From an uncultured Candidatus Peribacteria bacterium (GTDB lineage Bacteria; Patescibacteriota; Gracilibacteria; BD1-5; JAGOOR01), in assembly GCA_964630285.1 (NCBI GenBank), contig CAZVRL010000004.1:1-46657 (forward strand): 46,657 nt of DNA, in the 5' to 3' direction. A model generated the notes under the pieces. It searched no databases and was not told the DNA's origin. It was given only the letters and a program-made list of their open reading frames with translations. Each line of letters opens with the position of its first letter. The stretch's first letter is position 1. The translations under genes were made by a program, and so were the position numbers. Shown in pieces: positions 1 to 46,657 of this stretch.

Positions 1-140
1 ACCACTGAAAGCATCTAAGTGGGAAACTCACCTCAAGATGAGATATCAGACCCCTCGGAGAATACGAGGTTGATAGGTCGCAGGTGTACGGACAGCAATG
101 TCTTCAGCCGAGCGATACTAACGGTCATATTTGTATTTCT
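1..140 (+). rRNA. rrl: 23S rRNA, 3'-terminal ~140 nt (gene begins upstream of window)
   Basis: Conserved 23S 3' domain strings are present: ACTGAAAGCATCTAAG, GTTGATAGG, GATACTAAC. The exact 3' end is approximate. Confidence 0.9.
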
Positions 141-230
141 TCCGCTTTTGTGTGCATTTCGCTATTATTGTAATTTACTCATCGTAACTTTTTCTTCAGA
201 TTATGACAACACTTTGTGTTGTCTCGAGTG

Positions 231-344
231 TCTTGGTGCTTCTAACGCGGGTGTTCACCTGTTCTCATTCCGAACACAGAAGTTAAGCCCCGTCGTGCCG
301 ATGGTAGTGCTCATTTGAGTGCGAGAGTAGGTAGGTGCCAGGAC
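231..344 (+). rRNA. rrf: 5S rRNA
   Basis: Contains CCGAACACAGAAGTTAAGCC...GCCGATGGTAGT...GAGAGTAGG. The terminal helix pairs CTTGGTGC with GGTGCCAGG. Length ~113 nt. Confidence 0.9.
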
Positions 345-395: not shown

Positions 396-529
396 CATTT
401 TTTTTTGCATATACTTGTCTCATGGAGCTTCTCTCAGAACCAAACTGGAGATGAGATGCGCCAGATGACCTCTGGATGGAGTGTTATCTGCGTGCTTCAT
501 GAGATCATCGTCGGATGATACATGAGATC

Positions 530-823
530 ATGAAGAAGCATTGCCTCACCACACGAGAAGCCGTACAAAAACTCTATAAATGCGACGAAGAGTCTGCCCT
601 GCATGATACTATCCCCTGAGAGTGGAATACGCCCGTTATACAGCTATTACGAGAGCGAGAAGTACTTCGTACTATCGGACATGAATTTGATGGCCTCGTC
701 GCTGCAACTCACGCAGAACCAGCGCAGTTTGATGCAGCTATTCATAGACGAGAACAAGTAGAGAAATTTCTCTCATGACCGAGGGATATACAGGGTGGAG
801 ATGTACACCTCCGAAAGATATAG
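530..823 (+). CDS. Hypothetical protein, 97 aa (two in-frame TGA)
   Basis: ATG at 530, TAG at 821-823, open only if TGA is sense. No recognisable motif. GC is higher than its surroundings, so it could be a gene remnant. Confidence 0.3.
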
Positions 824-862
824 TTTTCGTTGAGAAAAGTGGGGAATGGATATAATCGAATC

Positions 863-3800
863 ATGTCTTCTCAAATTGCATCGTATCTCTCAAAAGTTGC
901 TCAATCTCTCGCATCTGGTCATGCGACAGAACATAGTTATCGTCCTGAACTTCGAGACCTTTTTGTCGCCCTGACAAAATATAATGTCATCAATGAACCC
1001 AAGGGAAGTGAACACGGAAAACCAGATTTTATTTTCCTCTCAGGACAGTGAGCGGAGCTTTTTCCTGTAGCGTATGGGGAAGCAAAGGATATACACGTCA
1101 ATCTTGAAAAGACGACTAAAAGTGAACAGCTTGCACGATATTTCGGATATGCCAGGTTGATACTCACAAATGGTATTGAGTTTCGATTCTTCAAAAATGG
1201 TTCGCCTTATGGTGAGCCAGTTATACTTGCGACAAAAGATGGAAGTGTTTTAAAACTCCACGAAGAAAAATTTAATGTTTTTGTTGATACGCTCTCTGCA
1301 TTTCTCACTGAATCGGTTGACTCAATTCGTTCGTCGAAACACCTCGCACAAATCATGGGGGGTAAGGCTCGACGCATCCGTGACAATCTCCGCGAAATGC
1401 TCACCGAAGTAAATCGTACAGCAGGAAAATATGCAGATATATTCGCACTCTATGATATTTTCAAAAAAGAAATTCTTCATGATTTGGATTATCACAACTT
1501 CGCAGACCTCTATGCTCAGACGCTCGTCTATGGACTCTTCGTCGCACGATACAATGATACAACGCCAGAGAATTTTACACGTTCAGAGGCTCGTGACCTC
1601 GTCCCAAAAAGTAATCCACTTCTCCGAAAATTCTTCGACCATATAGCAGGTGAGGGATTTGAGAAACGACTCGGATATATCGTCGATGAACTCTGTGAAG
1701 TCTTTGCTCATGCAGATGTACGAGCACTGATGCATGGACTCTACCAAAAAGCGGATATCGAGACACACGATCCTGTGATTCATTTCTATGAAGACTTCCT
1801 CGGAGAATATGATGCGAGCATGCGAAAGCAGCGATGAGTCTTCTATACTCCTGCACCAGTCGTACGATTTATTGTGCGGGCTGTGGATGATATTCTCAAG
1901 ACTCATTTCTGACTCAAGAGAGGGCTTGCTGACACGAGCAAAATCAAACACGAGACGATGGGGCATGTGACCGACAAACGAGGAAAAATGTCGACAAAAT
2001 CCCTCACAGAAGAAGTTCATCGTGTGCAAATCCTCGACCCTGCCACAGGAACAGGAACATTTCTCAATGAAGTTATCAGACACATTCACGGAAGTATGAA
2101 AGACCAAGCGGGAATATGGCCATCCTATGTCCAAAATGACCTCATCCCACGACTTCACGGATTTGAGCTGATGATGGCGAGCTACACTATCGCACATCTG
2201 AAACTCTGACTCACGCTTGCAGAAACTGGCGTCTCTGAACTCGACCAGCGTCTCCAAGTCTATCTCACCAACTCTCTCGAAGAAGCAAAGACCAATCGTG
2301 AGACACAAGGTACTCTCTTCTGACTTGCTGAGAGTATCACAAGAGAGGGGCAGTATGCTGATGAGGTGAAAGCGGATAAGCCTGTGATGGTAATTGTCGG
2401 CAATCCTCCGTACTCTGTGAGTAGCTCAAATACTGGACCATGGATTCTTAATCTTATAAAAGACTACAAACAGTGACTCTGAGAGAAGAAGATAAATCTC
2501 GATGACGACTACATAAAATTTATACGATTCTGAGAAGATCTTATAGAAAAAAATGGAGAATGAGTTCTCGCTTATATCTCAAATAATTCATTCATTTGAG
2601 GCATTACACATCGACAAATGAGAAAACATCTGATGCAAACGTTTGATGAAATTTATATTCTTGATTTACATGGGAATTCAAGAAATTTAGATATAAACCC
2701 GAATGGCTGAGTAGATGAAAATGTTTTTGATATAATGCAGGGCGTAAGTATTAATATTTTTATAAAGAAAAAGAATAAAGAATTAAAAAATCTTGCGGGT
2801 ATTTTTCATTTGGATCTTTACTGAAAGAGGGATTTAAAATATAAATGGCTTGAAGAAAATTCAATTGATAATTTTAAGAAACTAACTGTTGAAGATCCTT
2901 ATTATTTCTTTGTTCCAAAAGATTTCTCAGGTCAAGAAGAATATGAAAAATTCTTTTGAGTGGAAGAGCTATTTTGATTATTCTGTTCATGAGTTCAGAC
3001 AGATAGAGACCCCCTATTTATAGAAAATAATAAGAATACTCTTACTAGTAGAATTCAAGTTCTTTTATCGAAAAATTATTCTCAGGAGTTTGCGACTCAA
3101 TATAATATAAAAGATTCATCAGGATATAATTTGATTTCAAGAATTAATAATTCTAACTTTAATGAATCAAATATTCAAAAAATTAATTATAGGCCTTTTG
3201 ACACAAGGTTTATATATTATGACCCAAAACTTATCAGCCGTGCTGGTTATGAATCTAACAAAAATTTACTAAAAGAGAATATTGGATTGATAGCTAAGAG
3301 GGGTTTTGATGAATGAAAAACTTCCCCATGCTTTGTAACAAAAAATATTTCCGATCGTCGTGGCTGGAGCCGTCCGTGAATGCAATGAGCAGAGCAAATT
3401 TTTCCTCTTTATCTTTACTCTGATTCAGAGAATTTGGAGAATCAGACACGAACACCGAATCTGAACGAGACGATTTGGTCAGCGATTAATGCGATTGTCG
3501 GTGAGACGACACCAGAGCAGATTTTAGATTATATTTATGCCGTGCTTCATTCACCATTGTACCGTGAGAAATACAAAGAGTTTCTAAAGATTGATTTCCC
3601 ACGAGTACCATATCCGCGAGATCGTGAGAGTTTCCTCGCGCTTGTCGCATTTGGTGGAGAGCTTCGGGCTTTGCATCTCCTAGAGTCTTCAAAAGTAGAG
3701 GATTTTATCACTTCCTATCCTGTTGCAGGAGATAATGTGGTGGAGAATGTTAAATATGTTGATGAAAAAGTATTTATCAATCCAACGCAATACTTCGGTG

Positions 3801-3982
3801 GCGTTTCAGAGTCTGTCTGGGCTCATCCGATAGGTGGTTATATGCCTGCTCAGAAATGGCTCAAAGACCGCAAAGGTCGTACACTGACCAATGATGACAT
3901 CATGCACTATCAGCGAATGATTGTCGCCCTTTCTGAAACTGCGAGAGTGATGGAGGAGGTGGATAGAGTTATTAAGATTTAA
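863..3982 (+). CDS. Type IIG/IIL restriction-modification fusion: N-terminal PD-(D/E)xK nuclease, gamma-class N6-adenine methyltransferase, C-terminal specificity domain
   Basis: Five ORF-track fragments of >=60 aa (830, 1157, 1958, 3131, 3434), all in frame 2, plus shorter pieces, join only through TGA. Motifs seen: KPDFIF...GEAKD (nuclease), RKQR-TGA-VFYTP, DPATGTGTF (motif I), VGNPPY (motif IV). Alternative TTG start at 830. Confidence 0.85.
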
Positions 3983-3984
3983 TT

Positions 3985-4854
3985 ATGGATTATCAAAAAA
4001 TACCTCCTAAATATAAAGCATTATTACGTAGATTAGATGACCCTGAAGATAACTGCGATGACTTAACCTATAATGAGCTTAACTTCTTAAGAGATCAATG
4101 ATTTCTTGATTTTACTTATTCAGATGATAATGGTTTGATATGGAGAAATGTGAAGGAGGCCGGGAAAATATTTATTGAAGATAATAACAATAGTCCTGAT
4201 ATGAACAAAGAGACTTATGCGTTTGATGTTTTGTGGCGGAATGTACTTCTTGTTGATGATACGTTAAAACAAATTATTTTTATTGATAATATTTTATTAG
4301 AAGATGAATATAACACAGAAAAAACATATCAAATTTTAAATCTCGACGAAAAAAAACTTCAAGAAGTTTTAAAGAAGACTCAGGAAATAGATTTATTTAA
4401 GCCTCATTTAGTAAATGACCTATATGAGTTATTTTTTATCTATAGAGCCTTTTTTCTTAGAATATATTTGCAATATGAGAAGTGAACAAGAAATAAAAAT
4501 ATTATTAAATGGATCCATGATAAGGCTAATACAGACAGGCTCCAAAAACATCTAGGTGAAGATTTTATGTCCGATATTTTATCTCGAAATTTATGATGAC
4601 TTACTCTCATTTCTCAAAAGTTTCATAATATGATTATTCAAAATAAGCCAAAAAATATACCAAAAACTATTCATGTCGAGAATAATTTTGGCAATATTGC
4701 TTGAACTAATTCTGGTTATCAAGAAGTCAATAATGGTATAAAAAATACCTATAAAAATAGTAAAAGTTGGCAAGATAATATCTGAATATATCTCTTTGTA
4801 TCAATTATTCTCATCGTAGTGTGATTTCTTATTGAGTATTATTTTTTCAAATAA
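3985..4854 (+). CDS. Hypothetical protein, 289 aa, with C-terminal transmembrane anchor; translationally coupled to the RM gene
   Basis: ATG lies 2 nt after the RM stop. Frame 1 stays open across several TGA to TAA at 4852-4854. Very AT-rich. The tail IGIYLFVSIILIVVGFLIEYYFF is hydrophobic. Confidence 0.6.
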
Positions 4855-4859
4855 ATAAA

Positions 4860-4878
4860 CCCCCGCAAGTTGCGGGGG
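4860..4878 (-). terminator. GC-rich hairpin terminator (works best for the minus-strand yegP-like gene; possibly bidirectional)
   Basis: CCCCCGCAA-g-TTGCGGGGG. On the minus strand it is followed by TTTATTTATTT. Confidence 0.55.
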
Positions 4879-4896
4879 CTATTCAGATTGCAAGGA

Positions 4897-5058
4897 TTAC
4901 TTTGATGCTCTTACGAGGGCATCTCGAACCAAAAGTGCATTGCTGGCACAATCCTGACGGTTTATGAAGCCTTCAGAGCTTGCACCAACGATGCGACCGT
5001 TGGAACCAGTAATTCTCCATCTATACTCCTTGTTTGGAGCTTGGTAGATTTCAAACAT
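4897..5058 (-). CDS. YegP/DUF1508-family small protein (53 aa)
   Basis: MFEIYQAPNKEYRWRITGSNGRIVGASSEGFINRQDCASNALLVRDALVRASK fits the DUF1508 pattern (FEIY..., YRWR, NG.I...SEG....). It is below the 60-aa cut-off of the ORF track. Confidence 0.65.
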   Translation of the reverse strand: MFEIYQAPNKEYRWRITGSNGRIVGASSEGFINRQDCASNALLVRDALVRASK

Positions 5059-5285
5059 AACTGTTGAAAATTAAGAAATAAATCTTGATTTTTCAACCAT
5101 TGCGGATACGATTGTTTTGCCGAAACAGTATCTCTCTTGGTGAAAATCAAGGGAGATTTTTTAATCTCCGAAGGGAAGTATAGAGCATCTTTATAAAAAA
5201 TCAACAATTATTTATCATATTTTTTATGTATTTGTATCAAAAATGAACATTTATAACTGTAAATAGAAAATAATGTAAAAATACT

Positions 5286-5313
5286 TTGCAAAAATGATAT
5301 TTTATTATATACT
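5286..5313 (+). promoter_or_regulatory. Sigma-70-like promoter TTGCAA-16-TATACT; the -10 ends 6 nt before ATG 5320 (leaderless geometry)
   Basis: TTGCAA at 5286-5291 and TATACT at 5308-5313. No purine-rich SD before the ATG. Confidence 0.4.
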
Positions 5314-5319
5314 CCCGCC

Positions 5320-5988
5320 ATGACTACTTTTTCTCTTCGTGACCTTCGAGAAAAGCATAATTTTACTCAGGAGCAAATGGCTCAAATTATAGGCATTTCT
5401 CGACCTACCTATATTCGTCTTGAGGGTGATCGTACTGATCTCTCCTTTAAGCAAGCCCAAAAAATCGCAGAATATTTCCATATTTCTCTCGATGATTTGG
5501 CTCAAGAATCACACCCATTTGATAAGCAAAAATATCGAGATATTTTGACAGCATGTATTCAGTGTGGAAGTGATTCTGACGGTAAAATAACAAAAACAAA
5601 GCTTGCTAAACTTGCATATCTTGTTGATTTTGGATGGTTTTATAAACATCTAGAGCCTATGAGTGGAGTTATATACAAAAAAATAGCTCAATGACCAGTG
5701 CCAGATGTTTTTTTTGGTATGATAGATGAATTGTATGAAGATGGTGTTATTAATATTCAGATTAAGGGGCTTGCTCAAATGATAGCCAATAATGAAACTC
5801 CTTCTACTGAGACGCTTTCCACAGATGAGAAAAAATTTATATCTTCAGTCTGTGAGAAGTGGAAAGGAAAAAATACAAAAGAAATAGTAGAATTTGCTCA
5901 CTCTCAACTTCCATGGAGAATAGCCCAAGATAATGAAGAGATACCATACGAGCTTATTACTCAAGAAGAGCCTGAACATGTCTACTAA
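5320..5988 (+). CDS. HTH (XRE)-Panacea/DUF4065 (SocA-like) antitoxin, PanA type
   Basis: N-terminal FTQEQMAQIIGISRPTYIRLE helix-turn-helix. KTKLAKLAYLVDF...YKKIAQ-TGA-PVPDVFF matches the DUF4065 core (GPV). One in-frame TGA at 5695-5697. Confidence 0.8.
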
Positions 5989-6382
5989 ATATACGGTCAT
6001 TATTCGAGATTTTGCACAGCGTCATTTTATTGATGAGTTTGAGAAAAAGCACAAAAAAGCATGGCAGATTACATGGACAGCTTATGCTGTGATGTTATCA
6101 AATATAGAAGAACTTCTGAAGACAACAAAAGCTGAAAAAATTTGCTCAAATCGACATGAACATATTGTGAAATGTGAATTTGCCATTGCTGGTCGCGGAG
6201 AGTCTCCTCATGCTTCAGGCAATAGGATGATAGCGTATATGAATTCAGAAACACATGTTTGTGAGATTCTCCTTGTTTATGGCAAAACAAATATTTCTGG
6301 GAATCATGAAACTGCCTGGTGGCATAATACTATTTTTGATTTTCATGAGGATCTTAGGATTCTTTTGTGAAAAAGAAGATAA
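5978..6382 (+). CDS. Putative toxin partner of the Panacea antitoxin (134 aa, fold uncertain, possibly RelE/ParE-like)
   Basis: ATG at 5978 overlaps the antitoxin stop by 11 nt. Small and basic. ILLVYGK...ETAWW resembles RelE/ParE-type C-termini. Reads through TGA at 6368 to TAA at 6380-6382. Confidence 0.5.
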
Positions 6383-6393
6383 TTCTTCCATTT

Positions 6394-7317
6394 TTATTTC
6401 TCCCCGTACTCCCTGTAATTTGCGAGTATCTGTGCGAGTTGTGCTCGGTGTTCTGCTGTGAAGCTGTTCATAGGCATCGTTTCGAGGATATCCATGATAT
6501 GACGATGGATGATGCCGAGATCGGTTTCAGGATTTTCGCACGAGACGCAGAGATAGGTACCAGTCATACAACCAAATGTTCCGACGACGACCGCTGTTCC
6601 TGCCATACGCTTTGAGAGTTCTCGTTCGATATATTGCGAGAGGTAATAACTAAACCGTGGATCGAGGGTGAGACGAGTATCTGCATGATCAGTCTTTGGC
6701 TTCAGGAGTCGTAGATCACAGACGACAGCTTTTGTATGGTTGCTTGTTTGTGTGTGTGCTTCGACGGTGACAGTATCAGTTTTGACGCTTCTGAGGGCTG
6801 TCTGTGCTGCGTCAGGATCGTGGAAGTCAAATTGCCCACACTGTGCTGCTGTCGCAAAAGGAATACCACGAAAACCCTCTTTATCGCCATTGCCTGCTTT
6901 GACTGTATCGAGATATTTGATAGCAGTATCGACAGAGGCACTGATAGCGTTTCTGAGTGTCTCGGTGTCGAGCTCGACGAGAGACGTGATACGAAATCCA
7001 TACGAGCCATCCTGAAATTCATATGGTGAGACATCGAGAATCATCTTTGGATCGAGTCATGAGACTGCTTGTGAGAGGCTCGCTCGGAGACTCCCTGTAT
7101 CAGGTGCGTAGGCGAGGAGGTGTTCGTTTGTATGAATGCCCGCATGAAATGCCTGGTAGTCTGCGTCTCCTGGTCTGCTGAAGAGGCGGAGAGCGTAGGT
7201 GTGGACGGTGAGCGTATCGCTTCCTCCGTCGATGTGTTTATCGGCTTTGAGTGTCCCACCCGTCATGACGGTGTGGTCTTTATCCTTTGAATGGAGTCCT
7301 GCGTTGATGGTTATCAT
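6394..7317 (-). CDS. luxS: Tandem LuxS-LuxS fusion (S-ribosylhomocysteine lyase-like, 307 aa)
   Basis: The N-half carries GIHTNEHLLAY (HxxEH) and IPFATAAQCGQFDFHD (metal Cys). The C-half carries VVCDLRLL and GTFGCMTGTYLCV (GCxTGxY) but has no HxxEH. ORFs 7057..7317 and 6394..7044 are joined by one in-frame TGA. Confidence 0.75.
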
Positions 7318-7318
7318 A

Positions 7319-7957
7319 TTAGCTATTTACTATGAATTCGAGGATAAAAGGGAGATGTCGTACGACACGTTCTCCTGCGTGGAGGTTTTGAAAGAAGTTT
7401 TCTCCTGCGGATTCATCTGCATTATCTGAGATGATCTTGAGAGAGATAAGCGGTTTCTGATAGTGATGTGCGACTTTGGCGAGAGCGGCTCATTCCATAT
7501 CGACGAGTTGTCCACCTTTTGTCTGGAGTATTTCTCGAGTACTTCATGAGGCAACGAATTGATCGCCCGTGACGAGGACTCATGACTTCAGTTCTGGGTG
7601 TTCGACCGTGAGGAGATCAAAGAGTGGATAGAGTCTTTTTTGTGCTTCATCATCTCCCTCGATGAGACCATCGTGTTCGATGGTGTGTTTCACGACGACG
7701 ACATCACCGAACTCGAGATGGGGTGAGAGACTGCCCGCGAGGCCGATATTGATGATAGCATCGATAGGATACTGTTCGAGGACTTTTGTCAGTGTCATCG
7801 CGGCAGCGACTTTTCCAATCGAGCTTACCGCAAAGACATAATTCCCGTGTTCGACGATATCACCGGCTTTCAGGGCTTTTTCATAGCTCAGATACTTCGT
7901 GAGCGGGAGCATCTCTTCTGCCATAGCAGAGATAATGAGGATTTTTTTGTGGTGCAT
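7319..7957 (-). CDS. mtnN: 5'-methylthioadenosine/S-adenosylhomocysteine nucleosidase
   Basis: KILIISAMAEE, INIGLAGS, LVTGDQFV, VDME-TGA-AALA, ISDNADE. The stop lies 1 nt upstream of the luxS ATG. Confidence 0.85.
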
Positions 7958-7987
7958 GATGATATATTGTTTAGAACAGGCGGCGTT

Positions 7988-8015
7988 ATTGTACTTTTGA
8001 TTGCAAAAGTACCAA
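7988..8015 (-). promoter_or_regulatory. Promoter (TTGGTA-16-TACAAT) whose spacer is a perfect 9-bp-arm dyad GTACTTTTG-N4-CAAAAGTAC; upstream of mtnN-luxS
   Basis: Dyad at 7991-8012. A near-identical copy lies at 35290-35318. Confidence 0.35.
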
Positions 8016-8119
8016 AACAATTCAAGGGGCAAAAACTCGGACTGTTTTCATCTCACGGTTCTGTATTTATGGACCTTAAACAGTTTGCCCCTTAAAAATC
8101 CTTTTCTGTTCGGATAAAA

Positions 8120-8635
8120 TTACAACTGTATAGCGGAAAATATCTCGTATTGTGGGAGCTTCTCGCGTCCTTTTAGAGGTGTTATTTCGATGAGCACTCC
8201 GCCGAAGACGGCGCTGGCACCATTATCTTTTGCGAGTTTGAGACTGGCCACAAGTGTTCCTCCTGTTGCGAGGACATCATCGATGACGAGGACTCTGTGC
8301 CCCTTCAGTATATCTTTTCTGATGGCCAAAGTCGCTGAACTATATTCATAATCAAACGATTCTTTCGCTACAAGCGTATCAGGGAGTTTACCGTCTTTGC
8401 GTATCATGACAAAAGGCAGTTGATATTTTTCAGCGAGCATGCCTCCGAGTATAAAACCTCGTGCATCTACACCAGCGATAGTGTCTATATTTTTCTCATG
8501 CATGAAACCTCTAAATGCTTCGAGTATTTCGTTTCGTGCTGGTACATCGAAGAGAAGTGGTGACATATCACGGAAGAGTACTCCAGGAGCTGGGAAATCG
8601 GGATAGTTCGTGAGGAGATGATTGTATTTTGACAT
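8120..8635 (-). CDS. apt: Adenine phosphoribosyltransferase
   Basis: FPAPGVLFRD, IAGVDARGF, VLVIDDVLATGGT (PRPP loop). Uninterrupted ORF. Confidence 0.9.
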   Translation of the reverse strand: MSKYNHLLTNYPDFPAPGVLFRDMSPLLFDVPARNEILEAFRGFMHEKNIDTIAGVDARGFILGGMLAEKYQLPFVMIRKDGKLPDTLVAKESFDYEYSSATLAIRKDILKGHRVLVIDDVLATGGTLVASLKLAKDNGASAVFGGVLIEITPLKGREKLPQYEIFSAIQL

Positions 8636-8713
8636 AGATTTGTACCATTGTAGACAAAACTCGTTCTTCTCAAGGTTTTATAATGAATTGACATAACTTG
8701 TTTTATTATAACA

Positions 8714-10168
8714 ATGTTATTTATTATGACTTTGCACAGTTCAGAATTAGATGACGAGAGTGTTGCCTATAAAGCCTTTTTGACTATACAGAGGGATTTT
8801 TATGAAACTCCTGCGAGAAATATTCCTGAATTTCTACCATTCAAGAAACCAAAGAAATTTGATATAAATAAAAGTAATTATGAGAGCCCAGTCCTGTCTA
8901 TGATTATTGATGCGGTGCGTCATGTTTCCAGAGAGATACTTCAGAAGCAGAATCCGGGTAAGTATATTTATGGTATGAACCTTTCTCCTGAAGAACTTGA
9001 GCGTATTTCTTGGAAAGTTTTTGCTCTTTTGCGTTTGGCTCCATTGCGTGATAAGGATCATGATGGGAAAACAGTTGCCCAGTATTATCCAGAAAGATAT
9101 CCTGATAATTTCTGAGAAAAAGGGCATATTGATATGACTCATAATCGTATTCTCGCGTTTGAAAAAAGATGAGCACAAGAACGAGTCGATAAACTCCAAA
9201 ATGCTCTCATGGATATCCTCGATAAACGATATACATATCTCGCAGAGTTATTCTCTACTCAAGAACCGCAAGAACAGGAACGTATCATGGCTCATATAGA
9301 GCGTTGCATGCAGGAGATCCATCCTATAAAGCGTGATATACATAGTCTCTGTGATCAGTTTCAGCTCCCCAATCAACTATTACCTGTGGAAACAGAAGAA
9401 GAATCTTCTTTGTCCCAGATAGTTCACTGGAATTACATTCAAAAACAAGAAACGGCACGTGCCGAATTTGAGCTTTCTGAGAATGAGAATGTTCTCCTTC
9501 CTTTTATTCCCCCGAGTTTTCGAGAAAAAGAATGGCCTCTATTTCATTTTACTTTTGTTTCTCCTGAAGAAATCGAAGAACATACTATGGGTGAATCAGA
9601 TGTATTTCGAGAGGATCTCCGCTTGCTGCGCGAACGATCTCTGGAGCGTAAGATGATGACAGGGTATTATATTCTTCAACAGCTTGCTCTCCATCGCCGT
9701 AAGAGAAACATACTTGATCCACAGCATGTTGCGCTCTTTACCCAGACAGTGAAAAAGCTCTCTATCGAAATAGACCTTCTCAGAAGAAAGCTCATGAATA
9801 AAAAAGGGAAAGAAGTAGGTATGAAACATCATCTCTCAGAGATTGATACACTTTTGGTATCAATGCAAAATGTACTACAAATTCCTCGGATGAACCCTGC
9901 AGTGTCTCAAATTATGCAGGGTATTCTGGAAATAATGAACGCTTTCTATTCCAGCTGTAATGCTATTTATGCCGATAAGCTTATTGATCCCCTTGAGATT
10001 GATGGATTGATTGATAATCTCCGTTTCGATACTCTCGAAAGATTACGAATGTATGAGGCTCAAATTATAGAAGCTGAGACTTCCTCGCCTCTTGGTGATG
10101 ATGATGATTTTCATAGGGTAGTAGATATGATATCTCGTGCTCTCGCATTTTTAGAAGGAGAAAAATAG
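8714..10168 (+). CDS. Hypothetical protein (~484 aa)
   Basis: ORFs 8714..9115 and 9209..10168 share frame 2 and are joined by two TGA. No recognisable domain. Alternative ATG at 8726. Confidence 0.6.
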
Positions 10169-10171
10169 TTT

Positions 10172-11026
10172 TTGATTCTCAGGAGTTTCCTATATTCTCT
10201 CGCTATGAAAAAAGGAATACTTTGGCATATCTATCATACCCCTGTTCTCTTTCCTATTCTTCTGATATTCCGAAGTAGATTTTTTTCTCGGACAATGGGA
10301 TGGATTTTTCGGAGTTCATTTTCGAGATTACTTATCAGGACACTCTCTTCACTCTATCATATTTCACTTGATTCGTATATTGTGCCTGAGGGATGATTTC
10401 AGACACTCAATGAGTTTTTTATTCGTCATAAAAAACCTGAATTTATCTGTTTCCCAGAAAGTGGTTCTCTCGGAAGTCCTGCCGATGCGTGTGTAGAAAT
10501 TTTTCCTGATATCAAAGTTTCTGATGATTTTTCTGTCAAATGATACAAAGCAAAACTCTCAGATATATTCTGACCAGATATAGGAGATTTTGAGCATGGA
10601 GATGTGTGTTTTTGTCGTCTGCGATTCTCGGATTATCATCGTTTTCATTTCTTTGATGATGGAGAAGTTGTCGCTTCTCGTGGTCGTGATGGGCCACTGT
10701 ATTCCGTTGATCAGAGCGTTCTCGACACGGGTTTATGGATACAGAATAAATCTCATCTCATGAGACTGCAGACCAAACATTTTGGTGAGGTATTGTGGCT
10801 CGAGGTTGGTGCGACCAATGTTGGCTGTATCACGAATCATAAAAAAATGTGAGAGGCTTTCTCTCGAGGGGGAGAGAAGTGATATTTTGAACTCGGTGGT
10901 TCAGCGATTCTTCTCGTTTTTCAAAAAGATATGATTCAATGGTCGGATACTCTTCTCCAAAAAAGCCTTCTAAAAGAAGAGCTTGAAGTGACTGTTGGAG
11001 AAGTGTTCGGACAGAGGAAGAATTAA
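10172..11026 (+). CDS. psd: Phosphatidylserine decarboxylase proenzyme
   Basis: FQTLNEFFIR, SPADA, VK-TGA-Y, DYHRFH, VGATNVG, GEK-TGA-YFELGGSA (cleavage-site motif). TTG start at 10172 or ATG at 10205. Confidence 0.85.
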
Positions 11027-11571
11027 TACCAGCATTCTTTCCATCCTATTTTGTAGGCACAAGTATTTGTAAAAAGGCTCAACACTGGCCCGATGATGAG
11101 GAGAAAAATATACTCTACTATTCCACCATTGTAGTATGGCAGCATGAAAATAATAGCTCCCAGCATATAATCGATACCATCCCATGGTTGAAACATAGTT
11201 CCTGGTTTGATGCCGAGACGACGCTTAAAAAAACTCTTTACCATATCCCCCACGAGTGCACCGAGCCCGAGCCATCCTCCGAGAAACATCGCACCAGTCC
11301 AGCTCGAATAGAGGTTGAAATAATCGCTATAGAGAGGAAGTATTCCTACGAGAATACCTCTGATCAGAAATAGAAAAAGTCCGAGCATCATTCCTGCAAG
11401 GACTCATGTGATGAGACCTCTCACTGTTTTATTTTTCCCGAGCCACTCTGCATGTACTGGTCGTGAAAAACGTCTGATGTAGGGGATATTTTTCGCAACT
11501 ACTGGTACTGCGTTGGCGACAAAAGCAGGTGAAAATATCAGAAAAATCTGCAGGAGATTAGCGAAGAACAT
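11023..11571 (-). CDS. CDP-archaeol synthase (CarS/DUF46) family protein, probable CDP-lipid synthase
   Basis: SPAFVANAVPVV, LGKNKTVRG, GDMVKSFFKRRLGIKPG, PWDGIDY. One in-frame TGA. The start is uncertain (ATG 11571, or upstream at 11664). Confidence 0.65.
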
Positions 11572-12223: not shown

Positions 12224-12224
12224 A

Positions 12225-12785: not shown

Positions 12786-12852
12786 ATCTCTATTATTCAG
12801 AAAAACTCACGTTTTCCAAAGCTACTGTCTATCTTTAGGACATTTTTATTTT

Positions 12853-13767: not shown

Positions 13768-13768
13768 A

Positions 13769-33542: not shown

Positions 33543-33619
33543 AAAAGGGAATAATTAAAATAACTCGTACATCCTATGAGTTTGTCTGGATTTTCAATAT
33601 TACTTTTCTATAACCGATA

Positions 33620-36348: not shown

Positions 36349-36422
36349 AAAAGGGAAAAATAAAAGAATTTTGCTTGTTCGTATAAATTCTATAAAGTCT
36401 CCACATAAAGCAATCCCAATTA

Positions 36423-38843
36423 ATGCCTCAAAAACAACCACAATCTCTGGCTCTCTGACTCGATTTCGCACCTGATTTTGAGAGGATTCGTCGTGAATAT
36501 TCGCCGATAGAGATAAACCAGATAGCCAATCCTGAGCATCCTCCTGTGGGGATCGAGTATGTCGAATGTGATACGCTTTCGGAGCTGGTGGAGTTCTTAC
36601 ATGACTTCCAAGAGAAAAGAGAGGAGAAGTGAGTAAATCTCACTTCGAGTAGAAAAGAGAAAAAATGAGGAATCCTTGTTTTAACGAAACAAACACCTGT
36701 GATGGAGAAGTTTTGTGCGGATAATGAGATAGAAGCACGGATTCATGCGTGGAAACTCTGAGGTCCGTCGTTTGTTCTGGATGGCCAATGTGTCATTACT
36801 GATGAGCTGATTTGACCACTCTTGGGTGGAGTCTTTCGACGGAAGAAGCGGCCGCAACTCGATTTGCTCGTGCAGATAAAGGCGGGTGATCCTGTGGTGC
36901 ACCTTTTTCATGGTGTGGGGATATTTCAATGAATCGTCCGAAATACGTTGTCATGAACGGAGCGCGAATATATCGAGATAGAATATGCGGAGAAGGATAG
37001 GCTCTTTGTGCCGGTCGAGGAGCTTCATCGTGTGAGCAAATTTGTCGGAGAGACGACACCTACTTTAACAAGATTAGGAAGCCCTGCGTGGAAGCTGATC
37101 CTCGCAAAAACAAATGAGGAAATCCAAAATATTGCAGAAGAACTCCTCGCGAATCATGCGGCTCGTCGTATGGCTGGAGGTGTGTCGATGATGGACTTTC
37201 CTGAAAAAGAAGAGACATTTCATGTCGCATTTTCACATAAGCACACGCTCGATCAAGAAGAGGCGATTCACGGAATCATGGCCGATATGAATAGTGAGAA
37301 ACCGATGGACAGGCTCCTCTCAGGTGATGTCGGTTTTGGCAAAACAGAGGTGTCACTCCACGCGGTCTATCGTGCATTTCTGAATGAAAAACAAACCATC
37401 TTTCTCGCACCACTCGTCGTCCTCGCATACGAGCACTATGAGTCAATTCGTGAGCGTCTTAAACCGTTTGGCGTGAATGTGGCGATGATGACGCGTATGA
37501 GTACCACCAAAGAAATTAACGTAGTTCTAAAGTGACTCAAAGATGGCTCTATTCATTGTGTGATTGGGACGCACAGACTCCTCTCTCCAGATATAAAATT
37601 CAGAAATCTCGGACTCGTCGTCGTCGATGAAGAACATAAATTCGGTGTGACAGACAAAGAAAAAATTCTTCACCTCAAGGCTGGCGTCGATACGTTGGCA
37701 CTCTCTGCTACGCCGATTCCTCGCTCACTCAATCTCGCTCTCTCTGGTGTGAAAAATTTCTCAATATTATCTACTCCACCACACGGTAAAAAGCCTATCC
37801 ATACCGCAGTGGCTCGCTATGACACAGTCATCGTCAAACGCGCTATCGAAGAAGAACTCGCTCGTGGTGGCAAAGTATTTTTCGTCCACAATACCATCAA
37901 AACACTTCCCATTCTCAAGAAAGAAATCGAGTCTCTCGTGCCAAAAGCAAAAGTCGTCATCACGAATGGTCAGCTCCCGTCTGATGAACTCGAAGACCGC
38001 ATCATGGAATTCAAACTCGGTATGCACAATGTCCTCCTCACTACGACGGTGATAGAAAACGGTATCAACTTCCTCGATACCAATACGATTATCATCGATG
38101 AAGCAGAAGATTTCGGGCTCGCTCAGCTCCACCAACTCCGTGGACGTGTCGGTCGTGGACAGATCCAGGGGATCTGTTATCTCTTGTATCGACAACCAGA
38201 ACTTCAGGATGAAGCACGAGAGCGACTCATGACCATCGCGAATCATACACATCTCGGTGCAGGATTTGAGATCGCTCTCCGTGACATGGAAATTCGCTGA
38301 GTTTGAGACGTTCTCTGAGTTCGCCAATCAGGGAAGACGCGTGATGTCGGTGTGAGTTTTTATCTGAAACTGCTCGAACAAAAAATCGAAGAACTTCAGT
38401 CATGAAAAAAAGAATCAAAAGTAGATACCACGATTGATCTGCCTATCAGTGCCTACATTCCCGACGAGGCATTTAGTTCTGACATCGAGAAAATTCACTT
38501 CTACCGAGAGCTCGAATCAGTCAGGAGTGAAGAAGAACTTGCAGAAGTTATCGAACCACTCAAGACTCGTATCGATATCAAGCAATCAGCGGTCGATCAT
38601 CTCTTCTTGCTTATCCGTGCAAGACTTCGTCTCTCATCACTCGGTGTCCGTCGTGTCTTTATGCAGCTCGGGAAATATACGCTCGAATGGGGCGGGGAAG
38701 GTGAGAAAACACTCGAAGCAATGAAGCAGATTATCAAACAGGACACCAAACAATGTGCGGAAGTGATGTCAGGCAAAAAAATTACCTTCTCACGCAAAGC
38801 GTTTTTAAATCATGGAGATTTTCTCCGGTATTTTGTTGGCTAA
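36423..38843 (+). CDS. mfd: Transcription-repair coupling factor Mfd, C-terminal fragment (rest of D1b/D3, RNAP-interaction domain, translocase, D7)
   Basis: PPVGIEY (E. coli LPAGIEYW), GDPVVHLFHGVGIFQ-TGA-I, EYIEIEYAEKDRLFVPVEEL, GDVGFGKTEV, VVDEEHKFG, LSATPIPR, HQLRGRVGRG, EIR-TGA-V-TGA-DVL-TGA-VRQSG. The start codon is uncertain (ATG 36423 is the first in the open frame). Confidence 0.85.
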
Positions 38844-39599: not shown

Positions 39600-40271
39600 T
39601 TACTCAAATAATTCCGAAAAGCTCTCCACACTTTTTTCTGCGAGTTCTATGCAGGCTCTCTCTGGTTTTTTAAAACGATGGTAGTAGGCTGTCTGCGCAC
39701 CACATTGTTTGGCACCTGTGAGGCCTGGTAGACCATCTTCTATGATGAGACATTCGTTCGGTTGTACTTCGAGTATCTCAGTACAGCGAATCCATACTTC
39801 TGGATCGGGTTTGTGGTGCGTAATATCATTTGCACTCACGATATTGTATCATCTCTCCGGATACTCTGGATGGTGGAGGAAATATGCTTGAATACCGATT
39901 TTTTCTAGCACCCACATAATTCGTCTCATTCCAGAATTTGATCCGATAGCGATTTTGATATTTTGTTTTTTACAGTACTCCAGAAAGGGGATCAGTGTTG
40001 GGTCACATTCGAGGCCTTCTGCCATCAGTGTTTGCTCTATGATGAGTGTTTCATCGATGAGCTTCTGTTTATCGAGTTCGATATTGTATTTTTCCTGGAG
40101 TGTTTGACAGACTTGTTCAAGTGATTTCGTGAAAAATCCTTCTTTTTCAAAAACAGAAGAACTCAAGGGGAGATGGCTTTTTGCGATAAATTGTTCCCAG
40201 GTATGACGATAAAATCAGAGACTATTAGCTACGACACCATCAAAATCAAAGAGAACGGCACGGTATTTCAT
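39600..40271 (-). CDS. HAD-superfamily hydrolase, subfamily IA (beta-phosphoglucomutase-like)
   Basis: VLFDFDGVVANS (motif I), AIGSNS (motif II), HHKPDPEV, IIEDGLPGLTGA (motif IV). Two in-frame TGA. Confidence 0.8.
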
Positions 40272-40272
40272 A

Positions 40273-40524
40273 TTATTTTATGATACTCTGAGCTATGCAC
40301 CATTTTGCACGTGATTCGTACCAAGTAAATCACCCAAAAAATACCGCAAGAGGTATCTCAAAATAAAAACCAAGAGCTATGAGTCCGATTGCGAGCCATC
40401 ACCTCCAAGAAGTACCTTTTGTTCCTATATTACAGGTCCCCATAGTTGGTTTTATACGTGAAAGTGCCTTTTGTATAACCCAACCAAGGCCATATCCTAC
40501 GAAAAATAAAAACAGCAACATCAT
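40273..40524 (-). CDS. Small membrane protein (83 aa)
   Basis: 84 codons with two TGA and two hydrophobic spans. The stop lies 1 nt above the HAD start. Confidence 0.4.
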
Positions 40525-40576
40525 GTCCTCATACTATCGTCTTTTGCTTTTGTATCAATGCATTATTCCTAAATAC

Positions 40577-40604
40577 TTGGTACTTTGCCTCTTCGGGCTA
40601 TAAT
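40577..40604 (+). promoter_or_regulatory. Sigma-70-like promoter TTGGTA-16-TATAAT; the -10 ends 6 nt before ATG 40611 (leaderless geometry)
   Basis: TTGGTA at 40577-40582 and TATAAT at 40599-40604. Confidence 0.4.
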
Positions 40605-40610
40605 TTACCC

Positions 40611-42152
40611 ATGAAAAAGCTCTTTTTTGTTCCATTTTTGATATTTTTCCTGGCGACTCCTCTGAGTTTTGCTGAGAAGAGTATGACTGTCGGCGAGACG
40701 CTCACTATGTATTTTTCCGAGCTCTTCCCAAATATCACTCCAGAAATCAACAACGTCACTCTGAAATACAGTGGTATAGGTAACCGTAGTGGTCTCCGTA
40801 CCGCTCTGCAAAAGGGTATTTATTATGGTATGTTGCCAAATTCTGCCGTCGAAATGACTCCTGACCGTGATATGACTGATAGAGCTTTTGCACAGTTGCT
40901 TCGTCGACACTTTGGTGTCCGACTCTCGAGTGACGAATCGGCTCTGACACAGAGTGATTATGATACGTTTATGGTGACTATTCGTGCATCTTTCGCGTAT
41001 CGTCTCCTCCGCCTCATGAATACTCCAGAAGAAACGACTATCCAGACTGAGTCTGTCCCAGAATCATCGAAACTTTCCAATGCAAATAATTACTATCTTC
41101 TCGAAAAAATTTATTCTATCCTGCAAGAGAGTTATCTCCGAGGAGAAAAGTTCAAAGACTCAGAGCTGATCTATGGTGCTGCTGAGTGACTCGTGAATGA
41201 GCTCGGTGACCAACATACGAAATTTTTCAGACCAGATGCGTCGACTGACTTCAAAAATAGTCTCGATGGAAACATCGTCGGTATTGGCGTCATCATCGAT
41301 GTGGATGCTCAGGGGTCACTTCTGATTACTGATGTCATCCGTCATAGTCCTGCCGAGAAAGCTGGACTTCTCGCTGGTGATAAAATAACGAAAGTGGATG
41401 CTGTCACGGTTACCACAGAAGATGGTATCGCTGATGATATCGCTCGGCTCCGTGGTAAAGTCCTGACACAGGTGGAAGTCACAGTTCTGTCTGGTAAAAT
41501 AACAAAAACAGTGGCTATTGTTCGTGAGATTATTCATGTCCCACTGGTGGAAACTGAAGTCCTGAAAAATGCCTATAAAATCATCTTCGGAGAAGTAGCA
41601 TTTGGGACTGATGCGCTTATGAAAAATGCTCTGGAATCATTTCTCAAGAGTGGTAAAAAACGTCTCATCCTCGATCTCCGAGATAATCCAGGAGGCTCGA
41701 TGGCGGAGACTCGCAATATCCTCAATTTCTTTATCGATACCGGAAATCCTCTTGTGATTCTCAAGTATCCACAACTCGAAGTCACGAACTATGCAACGGA
41801 CCCTGCCATGACTGATTGGTCACAGTATGAGATTGTCATACTTATCAATGGGGATAGCGCTTCGGCCTCTGAGATTATTGCAGCGAGTCTTCGTGAGTAT
41901 TTCCCACGAAATGTCGTCATTATCGGTGAGACTTCGTATGGAAAAGGAACTGTCCAGGAACTCGTGTCATTTGATGATAAATCGCTCCTGAAATACACTA
42001 TCGCAGAATGGCTCACTCCACGAAATAAAATATCGATTGATAAGGTAGGTATTGTGCCTGATAAGAGAATAGTTTTTGATAGACAGTACTGGAGAACAAA
42101 ACGTATCGATACTCAACTTCTCGGGGCCGAAACCTACGAATTTAAGAACTAG
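40611..42152 (+). CDS. Carboxy-terminal processing peptidase, family S41, with PDZ domain
   Basis: Signal peptide present. AAE-TGA-LVNELGDQHTKF, IGVII...PAEKAGLLAGDKI (PDZ), LDLRDNPGG, NGDSASASEI, SYGKGTVQ. Confidence 0.85.
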
Positions 42153-45100
42153 GCGGCAAGGGCAAGTTCATCTGATTCTTCTGCTTTACTCGTTCATCGA
42201 GAGACTGTATTGACATCTTTTTTTCGCGCCATTGTATCGAAGTCATCGAGTTTTTTTGCGAGAATAGTCCCTGAACGGGCTTGCGTATTTCTCTTGAGAT
42301 CTCACACTTCATCACCATCAAAATTTCCCTGGTGTATTTGTTCGAGAGAAAGTTCTTCTGTTACTACTTGATTTAGTATTATTTCACTCCACATTCGTGC
42401 CATCCGTGCTCTATATTTTATGGAAGCTCAAAAACCTTGAGTATTTTCTATTTCTTCTGCTTTTTTGAGAGACGCTTTCATTTGTTCAAAATATTTTTCA
42501 TATCTTTTTTGCTCTTTTGGCCCATCACCAGGTCATTTGAGAAGTTTTGGTTTGACCAATCATAGCATAACGGCAGGCATACTACAATATTCAGCTTCTG
42601 GTACATGCGATTTTATCTTTTTCTCCATTCCATCTTTCATTTGCGCTACATTTTTCTTGTAAATAGAGCCAGCGATATCATTAATTATCTTTTCATTTCA
42701 TCCAAATCCCATTTGTTTAGCCATATCTTTAGCCATATCTGGTATACTTTCCAGAAATCCTTGTATTTCATTAAATATCCCATCTCATTTTTTTGAATCT
42801 GATCCATTACCGAATTGCGGTTCTAGGTTCGGGTCTAAATAATTGTCCCAATTTATCCAGGCTATTGGGTATCAGTTATCAAATCCTTTTCTGAATCGAA
42901 AATGATCACCAGAATAGTATCATTTTCCACGTTCTATTGCCGCATGACCTACGGCGTCACCATGGGTATCCGCTAATCTCTGATAATAGGCTTTGATGGT
43001 TGGTTGTTTTTCTCGCAATATTCTGTATTGCTCTCTTTTTTCTGGTGGTTGTTTTTCTAATAAGTCATTAAAAAGAGCAGGGTCATTGATCATGAGATTG
43101 AGCATGGGGTCTCTCATCCCTGAGAGTTTATGCATCAGTTCTTTTCCGTGAGACATCCAGAAATTTGAAAAATCTTTTTTCCATTTACCTGCTGTATCTC
43201 ATGATAATCTTTGATGTTGGGCAATACGTGTTAATCTTTCTAATTCTTTTCAACAGCCAGGACTTATGGTGTATGCAAAAGCGATTCCTGTTTCTCGAAA
43301 AATATCTCAGAAGTCTTTGTTTTGCATAAAAACAAATTGCGGTATGTGGTATCCACTTTGGAATTGTGTTTTTATACTTTCTCTTGTAAATGACATCATC
43401 TGCTCTTCTCTCGATCAAAATAAGACTGCACCGTAGGGCATAGTACTTTCTGCTGTTGGGTATCATTCTGATAGCCATAAATTTGTCGCGCCTCAAAATA
43501 ATTCAGGAATTTTTCCTCAGACAGCTGTATTCATCATCCAATCTAATTTTTCTGCTTTTGTCGTTCTTTGATTGAGATTTCCTACACCACCATCAGCCAA
43601 ATCTTTATTTCCTGCCATCATATATTTCTGGAATCGTCGACCGAGGTTTTTTAACAGAGGATGCTTGAATTCATTTAGGACATCAAAAATTGCATCAGTT
43701 TCAGTCATTTTATAGCCATCTTTTGTCCATTTTTTTGGCCATGGATGATTTCCATGTGGCGGCATATGAGGATATTTCTCAGGATTGCTATGATTTGGAT
43801 CGAGAGAATGACAAATACTATTGTACCAAAACCATTCATGGCTCCCGTCACTATTTTTATAGTCATTTTCGCCTCCATCTCATGGGTATAGTTGTCAAAA
43901 AATCTTCATTGTTGACATCATAGCTGCCATGAATTTTACACTCGGGAAGTGTTCTTTTTTTGACCATTTTTTTATTAATCGACCACGGTGGTAACTACCC
44001 ATACCATCGACCTTATTGACGAGCTCATCGAGGTAGGACTGAAAGCTTCCATTACCGTCAGCAATCATGAGCGACGGCCATTCCATTTTGTTCATGGCCC
44101 AGCCCATGATGCCCCCTCCAGAATCGAGTTTTTCCATCGCGAGAGCGGCTGTGATTTTACCGGCAAAGGCATGATCTTTGTGGTGTTGTTCTTCTCAAGC
44201 CTTAAATGGAGCTTTCCAGAGATCACCATGCATGATGACACCGAGACTATGTGTATGTTTGAGGATATTCCACCAACTCATCCCATTATCTTTTTCTTTC
44301 TTTTCCTTTCTTTTTGCTTTTTCTATGGGTTTATCGAGCTCAAAGCTTTGATTATTTTGGAGATAGACCCAGAGCATCTCGAGAGACATGGTGAGAGATG
44401 GACTTCCTGAAAACTCGGGGTCTTGAGTCCATTTATCTTTTTCTTTGTCAAAGACTCCTTGCTCGAATGTTCCTCTTCGGTACGTCACTGTTGAGCCATC
44501 GATGCTCTCGATATAGAGGTCTTTTTTATCTCCTATTTTGATGACCGGTGTTTCTGTAAAAGCTCCTGTACTTGCATTGGTACTTCAGAATACATTTTTC
44601 CCTCCTTCTTCACGGATATTAATCTTCTTCATTTTCTTCACGAGATGGTCTTCGTATTGATCTTCATTTCCGCAGAGAAAATTAAACTGACTTACACTGA
44701 TTGGCTTGCCGCCTGTTGGTACGCGGAAGAGATCTTTGGATGTTTTTTTGAGTGATCTGAGCGTGAGGAGAAACTCATTGAATGACATTTCTTTGACTGA
44801 TTTTTTTCCTGTTCCCCAACCGTCCCAGAGCGTTACCTGTCCTGTTGCATCGTCGATAGATTTTATTTGAAATGTATCCGTTCCTTTATCGCTGACTTTA
44901 CAGAAAATCATACCCTCATGGAGCTTGCGTTCTTCAGGAGATTTTGCTTCTCTTTTATGATCTCATTTTGGATTGAGAAGCTGGTCTATTTCATAATTTA
45001 TCCCATCAATATCAGCTACTTCAGTAGCGTCTGGAAATTGATTTCGGAGTTCTGCTTGTGTTTCTTGTTCGGTGAAATAGCGAGGATATTTTTTGTCTTG

Positions 45101-46657
45101 CCCGTTTTTTTCTACATCTTTTTCGAAGTCATCACGTGTTCTGAAGGTGATTTTTCCATCGTCTGCACATCTGTCGAGATAATTATAAAAATCCGCACCA
45201 GTATAGTGTCGTGCGAGACCACTCGCTGAGAGAGGTCCACTATTATTCCCAAGGAATCGCGCTGTGATGATATTTTCTTCATCGACTGTATCACCAGGCA
45301 CAGAGTCGATGATATAGTATCCTGTGATTTCTTCGCCTTTATCATTTTTTGTTTTCCACTGCATCACACAGTTATCGTCGAAGTGTTCGATGCCTTCGAC
45401 ACGGTGTCCGAGGCGTGCTGTGAGTTCTTCGACGAGACCAGCTTTTGTATCGAGTTTTTCAGGATCTAGGTTGTCATATGTTGCTTTGAACTTTTCTCTG
45501 AAATCTTCTTCATTGTCAGTACTTGCTCGCAAAGATCCTGGTTTGCCTCGGTAGTACGCGAGCATATTCTCGGCACTTCCAATAGATCCAAACTGAGAGA
45601 GAAGTCGTACTTTTGTTTCAAACGGGAGACTGCGGGTGCCGATGAGATTTTTCCCACCACCTATTTTTGATTTATAGGTTTTTGCCCATTGCTCCTCTTT
45701 GTCTTTCTTGAGTGCTGTAGCGAGCTCTGTATCTGCGGGAAGGTTCTTTGCAAATTCTGCTTTTTCAGTGTCCGTTGCGATAAAGTTTTTACTTGATTTC
45801 GGGTCGAGAGCTTCAAGCACTGAGAAGGGTACGAGAGGGACATTTTGTCGTACGAGGAAGTTGAGGATTTTTTCCCGATTTTCCTCTGAGACAAGGGTAT
45901 TATCTTTTCCGAAAAACGCTCCGTAAGCACCAGCAATATCGACTTTCGGAGCTCATTCGTGTGTTATTTCATGAAATGCGCTTGCGAGATTCTTTTCTGG
46001 GTGAGCGACTTGTGCGATTTTGAGCCATGCTTCCTGGATTTCTCGACGTTTTGGATTTGATGGATCCATCTTGCTGATAGCACGCGTGATTTCGTCGAAA
46101 TTGATATCGTTGAAGTTTTTTTCTTTGAGTGCCTGGCTTCCGGGGAGCTTTTTGATGTATGTTTTGCGATATTTTGGAACTTTGAGAAACGTACGAAGTC
46201 GACCATATTCTTCTTTTTTGAGAGCAGCTCGGAGTTCATCCTCACTAAAATCCCCATACTCATCATGGGCGACTTCGAGACAGTTACTGATCATATTTTC
46301 ACGGGCTTTTTCTTTTGCTCGGACATCGCTCTCTATCTGTGACATGAGCTGATTGTCGAAACACTTTGTATCCGAGAGAAATTTCTCTATTTCTGTATCC
46401 GTCACGTCTGCACCAGCACTGATTATTCCCATTTTTGCCCTCTGTTCTGCAGAGAGTCATTTGAGTCTTTTTTTGAATTCTTCGAGGAGTTTATCACGAG
46501 AGATGCCTTTTTGATGGTATTGCTCTACGAGATCTTTGAAAGAAGGGTCTTTCCTGAGTCAGTCACAATAATTTCGTGTGTGTCGGACTTGTTCACCATG
46601 ATGAGTCGTCTCTCCAGAACGTCTGTCGAGGTTTTCTCTACTTTCTCCTGGTCATGT
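42149..46657 (-). CDS. Giant orphan protein, C-terminal >=1,502 codons (5' end beyond the window)
   Basis: Seven ORF-track fragments of >=60 aa (42920, 43517, 43895, 44195, 44585, 44963, 45953) share one frame. I translated every gap between fragments, plus both extensions (42149-42919 and 46433-46657), codon by codon and found only TGA interruptions. TAG at 42149-42151. Confidence 0.7.

Follow-up and report, generated by a model that had tools for sequence, protein, structure and literature searches.

How is the codon TGA read in contig CAZVRL010000004.1 (assembly GCA_964630285.1), whose 46,657 nucleotides we refer to as the window? An earlier note made from the sequence alone had answered that TGA is a glycine codon, as in genetic code 25 (translation table 25). 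We followed this up by two independent comparisons, one with solved protein structures from standard-code organisms and one with codon-aligned genes of 16 related genomes, and both supported glycine. The TGAs of the window stand at positions that are glycine in standard-code homologues, and TGA and GGN exchange freely in the orthologues of 16 species. The window is almost certainly chromosomal DNA of a member of the Gracilibacteria (BD1-5 type, within the Patescibacteria or candidate phyla radiation) that uses table 25, with UGA read as glycine, UGG as tryptophan and UAA and UAG as the stops.

Open reading frames (ORFs) were translated with TGA as X, and frames and strands were picked by homology using Pfam. 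The 23 Pfam-supported ORFs (9,101 codons) contain 79 in-frame TGAs, equivalent to 8.7 per 1,000 codons or 12% of 654 glycine codons, and 48 of the 79 lie inside the Pfam-matched stretches. At least one TGA is present in 19 of the 23 genes. The share of TGA among the glycine codons is strongly uneven between genes, ranging from 0 to 35%: it is 2-4% in RNase J, the S41 peptidase, the Na/Ca exchanger and TerC, and 20-35% in Mfd, phosphatidylserine decarboxylase (Psd), PGA_cap, the restriction-modification enzyme and the FNR-like reductase. The proposal that long genes are split by TGA alone holds in that all 79 interruptions are TGA and none requires a frameshift; it does not extend to four Pfam-supported genes, those for the phosphoribosyltransferase, sortase, M23 peptidase and DUF1697 protein, which are free of TGA. 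The rejoined genes end in TAA (19) or TAG (4), as had been claimed, although, with TGA opened, the construction of the ORFs in part guarantees this. Domain matches run in a single frame from end to end across TGAs, as seen for Type_ISP_C (1-342/342), tRNA-synt_1d (17-349/349) and DALR_1 (1-117/117), the last of which reaches the final residue before the TAA of the arginyl-tRNA synthetase (ArgRS) gene. Table 11 would split the 23 ORFs into 102 pieces with a mean length of 89 amino acids (aa), compared to a mean of 396 aa for the intact ORFs.

Which amino acid is inserted was assessed by aligning eight proteins to structures in the PDB and taking the residue facing each TGA from the best match. 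Glycine was found at 19 of 41 alignable positions and tryptophan at none (binomial P ~2e-11 for 19/41 at a glycine background of 7.5%). The earlier note had suggested such a tabulation of TGA columns; it shows a preference for glycine, and neither a predominance of tryptophan nor a lack of any preferred residue was seen. Glycine faces six of eight TGAs in Mfd (Thermus thermophilus structure; six of seven against Escherichia coli Mfd), two of four in ArgRS (6ao8), two of three in the MTA/SAH nucleosidase MTAN (4kn5), one of two in PGA_cap (8gq9, residues G and S), three of five in the FNR-like reductase (1tvc), one of three in Psd (6l06, residues S, G and A) and the single TGA in the S41 peptidase (9jr1). 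The restriction-modification enzyme, for which 7lo5 is a distant homologue, shows glycine at three of 15 positions.

Eight sites comprising ten TGA codons had been cited as invariant glycines, and their coordinates and flanking residues are all correct; the sites in MTAN (7490-7492) and ArgRS (26893-26895) lie on the minus strand, a detail that had been omitted. For six of the eight (Mfd, MTAN, methyltransferase, ArgRS, FNR-like and S41) the standard-code structures confirm the conserved glycine. The triple site of Mfd, EIR-x-V-x-DVL-x, is opposite EIRGVGNLLG in T. thermophilus and EIRGAGELLG in E. coli. RKQR-TGA-VFYTP of the restriction-modification enzyme is opposite ERLGIFYTP and ERLGIVFTP (7lo5 and LlaBIII), and VDME-TGA-AALA of MTAN is opposite EMEGAS, the MTAN TGAs facing G, N/K and G (4kn5, 4ffs). 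In ArgRS, FE-TGA-NSGPYLQY is matched by FEGNTAPYLQY, and the four TGAs face G, T/D, G and L (6ao8, E. coli). YIC-TGA-SP of the FNR-like reductase corresponds to YLCGPP (1tvc, 1krh) and AAE-TGA-LVNEL of the S41 peptidase to AIEGLLSNL (9jr1). The Psd site at 10880 falls outside the alignment with 6l06.

For the second comparison relatives were found by an ArgRS scan with one genome per GTDB species, yielding 16 loci with 66-89% ArgRS identity that are syntenic with window positions 8-42 kb. At 44 TGA sites of the window (260 codon pairs) the relatives carry TGA in 86 pairs, GGN in 102, TGG in five and a stop codon in none. Window TGG is opposite TGG in 508 of 524 pairs, which agrees with the earlier statement that TGG still encodes tryptophan, and window TAA is opposite a stop in 29 of 33 pairs. 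When considering only non-identical partners in a stricter gene set, TGA was opposite glycine in 63% of cases, compared to 76% for GGT. In the reverse direction, 239 of the relatives' 284 in-frame TGAs fall on GGN or TGA of the window and none on TGG. At the eight cited sites the relatives show TGA or GGN only: GGN in 13 and TGA in three at the ArgRS site, GGG, GGA or GGT at the FNR-like site (21015-21017), TGA in both covering relatives at the Psd site, and a conserved TGA at the AI-2E site (15963). None of the 61 standard sense codons changes its meaning in the codon alignment; CGA, CGG and AGG, for instance, are arginine. Among non-identical aligned codons, arginine accounts for 79% of the partners of CGA (n=256) and for 71% of those of CGG (n=14, a small sample). 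Since CGA and CGG remain arginine, the code is plain table 25 without the change of these codons to tryptophan predicted for Absconditabacteria.

The length of the read-through frames is a different matter. If TGA is taken as a stop, 109 stop-to-stop ORFs of 100 aa or more are present in the window, and none exceeds 653 aa. If it is taken as sense, the maximum rises to 1,502 aa, and ORFs of 100 aa or more sum up to 47,554 codons; dinucleotide shuffles give about 17,400. Both TAA and TAG are scarce on the two strands and in all frames, with observed/expected ratios of 0.42 and 0.48 based on base composition and of 0.61 and 0.71 after dinucleotide correction; the TA dinucleotide itself is at 0.66. 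Because of this depletion on both strands, long antisense shadow ORFs arise once TGA is opened, such as 16862-18130 (+) against the sortase gene and 7199-8095 (+) against the MTAN gene. The latter was considered as a gene and rejected, as it has no Pfam match and MTAN is encoded on the minus strand instead. Read-through alone is therefore weak evidence for recoding in the window. Gene prediction with table 25 may yield too many genes here, and the choice of strand needs homology; for the same reason self-trained codon-bias gene calling, affected by the rarity of TAA and TAG in all frames and the shadow ORFs, served us as a guide only.

The window sequence is also present in public assemblies. 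Identity to the window is 100% for Logan contigs from SRR12762304 and 99.9% for contigs from SRR26424636 and JGI 3300058930. The same sequence in independent assemblies indicates that the TGAs are not assembly errors. On the Logan contig L022, which is identical to window positions 6568-17432, the public gene calls are table-11 fragments, in line with the prediction that table 11 would turn the window into a field of pseudogenes. Compared to the calls on L020, a 91%-identical JGI contig of 382 kb, the AI-2E transporter is called as 61 + 271 aa on L022 instead of 388 aa, PGA_cap as 154 instead of 357 aa and Psd as 82 instead of 214 aa, and PNP_UDP_1 is split into 125 + 53 aa where the L020 calls are full-length. 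Under table 11 the number of gene pieces called in the window rises about fourfold, and the pieces are much shorter. Table 25 is therefore required for any annotation, homology search or pseudogene count on this contig.

In Gracilibacteria and Absconditabacteria, where UGA is glycine, a tRNA-Gly with anticodon UCA and the loss of release factor 2 (RF2) are described as hallmarks (PMC8629427; bioRxiv 10.64898/2026.05.24.727570). From this knowledge of the clade, UGA in the window's genome would be read by a dedicated tRNA-Gly(UCA); RF2, the terminator at UGA, would have been lost, release factor 1 would remain to read UAA and UAG, and no further codon would be reassigned in the lineage. We scanned metagenomes for a tRNA-Gly-shaped pattern with anticodon UCA and obtained at least 120 loci (L024-L143; examples are L036 8932-9010, L044 624-796 and L048 6904-6982). 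A class I tRNA of 76 nt with anticodon UCA is folded by ARAGORN in at least 40 of these; it carries G1-C72, C2-G71, G3-C70 and U73, elements required by the search pattern. Its sequence (GCGGGGGTAACATAAAAGAGTGAGTGTACTAAGGCTTCAACCCTTGGGTGTGCGAGTTCAAACCTCGTCCCCCGCTCCA with slight variations) hardly changes between contigs whose guanine-plus-cytosine (GC) content spans 18-44%. Frequently its neighbour is tRNA-Gly(GCC) or tRNA-Arg(GCG), and among the matches listed the ORFs on its flanks are conserved in as many as 30 loci. The label tRNA-SeC that ARAGORN assigns to it reflects the anticodon only. A 7.7-kb contig of a distant relative, L048, carries tRNA(UCA) together with an mfd orthologue containing 38 in-frame TGAs, 19 of which face glycine and three TGA in the window's Mfd. 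The scan thus shows that tRNA(UCA) and recoded genes occur together in the wider clade, and we infer the same for the window's genome. Among the matches listed, none of the 120 loci came from the samples carrying the window's population. On L020, the stretch within 10 kb on either side of a window protein holds an rRNA operon and no tRNA. The operon (16S-23S-5S, L020 11870-16959) is complete, ARAGORN detects no tRNA in its 16S-23S spacer of about 360 nt, and its 16S gene (15429-16959) is usable for placing the lineage.

Several points weigh against the assignment of table 25 to the window. Searches of the window and of 23 related loci gave neither a tRNA gene nor a release-factor gene; the Pfam search detected no release-factor domain among the window ORFs, a result that is uninformative on the rest of the genome. 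As the glycine acceptor-stem elements were built into the search pattern, their presence in tRNA(UCA) adds no independent evidence. In distant homologues some half of the TGA positions face a residue other than glycine, so that single sites are not individually proven, although such residues are expected where positions are variable. Finally, the support comes from sequence comparisons.

We weighed glycine against other readings of TGA. Tryptophan, as in table 4 of Mycoplasmatales and some insect endosymbionts, would account for TGA being clearly a sense codon, and in the alignment of the FNR-like reductase with 1krh one of two adjacent TGAs does face tryptophan, at a variable position. The best structural matches with their 19 glycines and no tryptophan, the relatives with GGN opposite TGA in 102 pairs and TGG in only five of 260, the lack of any relative's TGA on a window TGG, and the abundance and constancy of TGG itself make this reading extremely unlikely. 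The Absconditabacteria (SR1) type of code, in which CGA and CGG become tryptophan in addition to TGA as glycine, was predicted by Shulgina and Eddy (PMC8629427), and the rarity of CGG in the window would suit it. Both codons are nevertheless predominantly arginine and never mostly tryptophan in our alignment, and the relatives are titled Gracilibacteria, not Absconditabacteria; we consider such an extension very unlikely.

The other two readings retain the standard code. Genes do look broken under table 11, and the fragmentary public calls on identical contigs could be taken to suggest pseudogenes of a decaying genome or TGAs introduced by sequencing or assembly errors. In the 23 conserved ORFs, however, every interruption is TGA and not one is TAA, TAG or a frameshift; if the three stops were equally likely, the chance of this would be about 2e-38. 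The TGAs are moreover conserved or exchanged with GGN across 16 species and recur in independent assemblies, leaving scarcely any probability for decay or error. Insertion of selenocysteine, or programmed read-through of TGA with the code otherwise standard, might be suggested by the name 'SeC' that ARAGORN derives from the anticodon of the UCA tRNAs. We regard it as virtually out of the question: the density of TGA and its spread over 19 of 23 genes of unrelated functions go far beyond any selenoproteome, TGA faces glycine and not cysteine, and the UCA tRNAs are of class I without the long extra arm of tRNA-Sec.

The names under which the relatives are deposited need a comment. Of the 16 closest species-level genomes, six carry the title Candidatus Gracilibacteria, nine uncultured Candidatus Peribacteria and one simply bacterium. 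In GTDB, the UGA-recoded clade of the Patescibacteria corresponds to class JAEDAM01 with the orders BD1-5 and Absconditabacterales. The use of TGA, including in-frame TGA at glycine positions, is common to all 16. The name Candidatus Peribacteria is associated with the standard code. The nine records with this title (L002-L004, L007, L010, L012, L014-L016) include the closed 1.05-Mb chromosome OZ246415.1. On a weaker reading they could mean that code 25 reaches past the implied taxonomy; mislabelled records are much more likely, and the Peribacteria label is probably a mapping error. It would mislead any choice of translation table based on NCBI taxonomy. The earlier assignment to Gracilibacteria/SR1 agrees on the Gracilibacteria side with the titles of the relatives; the SR1 side fits less well, as CGA and CGG stay arginine.

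Table. Features of the window (in-frame TGA codons counted per ORF).
Feature	Position	Strand	In-frame TGA	Basis	Remarks
23S rRNA, 3' end	1-141	+		Rfam LSU_rRNA_bacteria, 97.8 bits, model positions 2767-2925	truncated by window start
5S rRNA	232-343	+		Rfam RF00001, 70 bits	
Type IIL/ISP-like restriction-modification enzyme	824-3982	+	18	Type_ISP_C 7e-77 (full length), N6_Mtase, MmeI_Mtase, Eco57I	stop-to-stop bounds; TAA end; cited site 1835-1837
HTH_3 + SocA/Panacea antitoxin-like	5263-5988	+	1	Pfam	TGA within Panacea match
LuxS-like, 310 aa	6394-7326	-	1	LuxS 4e-11, two stretches	
MTAN	7319-8119	-	4	PNP_UDP_1 7e-31	3 TGAs in match; cited site 7490-7492
Phosphoribosyltransferase	8120-8677	-	0	Pribosyltran	exact protein on public contigs
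Psd	10169-11026	+	5	PS_Dcarbxylase 1e-29, 1-197/198	cited site 10880-10882
CarS-like / CTP transferase	11023-11715	-	1	Pfam	
CDP-alcohol phosphatidyltransferase	11558-12280	-	3	Pfam	
PGA_cap family	13769-14854	-	5	Pfam 8e-69, 3-255/255	
AI-2E family transporter	14853-16157	+	4	Pfam 2e-41, 2-326/327	TAG end; cited site 15963-15965
Sortase	17060-18001	-	0	Pfam	exact protein on public contigs
MFS transporter	18048-19595	-	3	MFS_1	
CAP domain	19637-20548	-	4	CAP 5e-5	stop-to-stop bounds overlap FNR-like ORF
FNR-like reductase	20253-21101	+	8	NAD_binding_1, FAD_binding_6	6 TGAs past likely start; cited site 21015-21017
RNase J	21398-23473	-	1	RNase_J_b_CASP, Lactamase_B	TGA in low-complexity N-terminus
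M23 peptidase	23752-24810	-	0	Pfam	exact protein on Logan contig L017
ArgRS	26527-28359	-	4	three Pfam domains, N- to C-terminus	cited site 26893-26895
UvrB_inter-like small ORF, 182 aa	30175-30795	+	2	Pfam E 0.0017, under family cut-off	
DUF1697	31031-31615	-	0	Pfam 1e-45	
Na/Ca exchanger	31616-32587	-	1	Pfam 4e-65	
TerC	32601-33554	-	1	Pfam 4e-50	
Mfd (transcription-repair coupling factor)	36396-38843	+	12	CarD_TRCF_RID, DEAD, Helicase_C, TRCF	cited triple site 38298-38318
HAD hydrolase	39600-40277	-	2	HAD_2	
S41 C-terminal processing peptidase	40479-42152	+	1	Peptidase_S41, PDZ	TGA at cited site 41187-41189; TAG end
Large ORF, at least 1,502 aa	42149-46657	-	25	no Pfam match	24 TGG; exits window end

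Besides the features listed in the table, positions 24995-26515 of the plus strand hold a cysteine-rich ORF of 506 aa with a signal-peptide-like N-terminus, which has no Pfam match and is conserved in the relatives. The 5S rRNA and the MTAN gene are separated by a strain-specific segment of 6.9 kb (406-7323), comprising the Type IIL restriction-modification enzyme, an ORF of 27% GC (3976-4854), the HTH-SocA/Panacea antitoxin-like gene and the LuxS-like ORF. Relatives of 91-95% identity (L020 11310-11808, L021, L023) carry an ordinary LuxS of 161 aa in place of the segment, directly beside the rRNA operon; the window's LuxS-like ORF is double, has a GC content of 49% and is only weakly similar to it. 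In the restriction-modification gene TGA accounts for 25% of the glycine codons, and with its 18 in-frame TGAs it cannot be a recent acquisition from a standard-code donor. If the segment is mobile, exchange of its genes can have taken place among UGA = Gly hosts only, the recoded codon fencing off a clade-private pool of defence genes, a possibility that we put forward tentatively and consider rather unlikely.

A further observation concerns Mfd, which is short with about 806 aa. Alignments to PDB structures begin no earlier than the RID region (residues 122-158 of the query, E. coli residue 474), which suggests that the protein lacks the N-terminal UvrB-homology module. The small UvrB_inter-like ORF lies 5.6 kb upstream of mfd on the same strand, an arrangement conserved in the relatives. 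We considered it as a detached N-terminus of Mfd and rejected this candidate, since its sole support is the sub-threshold Pfam match and it has no PDB match. Every relative likewise keeps the ORF apart from mfd, so the separation does not result from a recent insertion into mfd.

How does the code of the window compare with known reassignments of UGA? The code of the Absconditabacteria (SR1) was reportedly described by Campbell et al. 2013; it shares UGA as glycine with the window and differs in CGA and CGG, predicted to be tryptophan there and found to be arginine here. The prediction of CGA and CGG as tryptophan in Absconditabacteria, and of CGG as tryptophan in some Gracilibacteria, stems from Shulgina and Eddy 2021 (PMC8629427). 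Table 4, used by Mycoplasmatales, Entomoplasmatales, Hodgkinia, Zinderia, Nasuia and others, likewise turns UGA from stop to sense, with loss of RF2 as a reported hallmark; there UGA is tryptophan, whereas TGA of the window faces glycine. Table 25 of the Gracilibacteria (BD1-5) goes back to Rinke et al. 2013, as cited in PMC8629427, and Hanke et al. 2014 found UGA recoded to glycine in a BD1-5/SN-2 bacterium (PMC4032931). With this system the window shares UGA as glycine in conserved genes, UGG as tryptophan and UAA and UAG as the only stops, its nearest relatives in public databases bear the title Candidatus Gracilibacteria, and its GC content of 41% lies within the range of 0.21-0.53 given for Gracilibacteria and Absconditabacteria (PMC8629427); nothing of substance differs. 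The recoding in the window is textbook table 25, which was described in 2013 and for which screening is routine (PMC8629427; PMC4032931). It opens no new question and adds one more confirmed code-25 lineage, one without the CGA and CGG changes.

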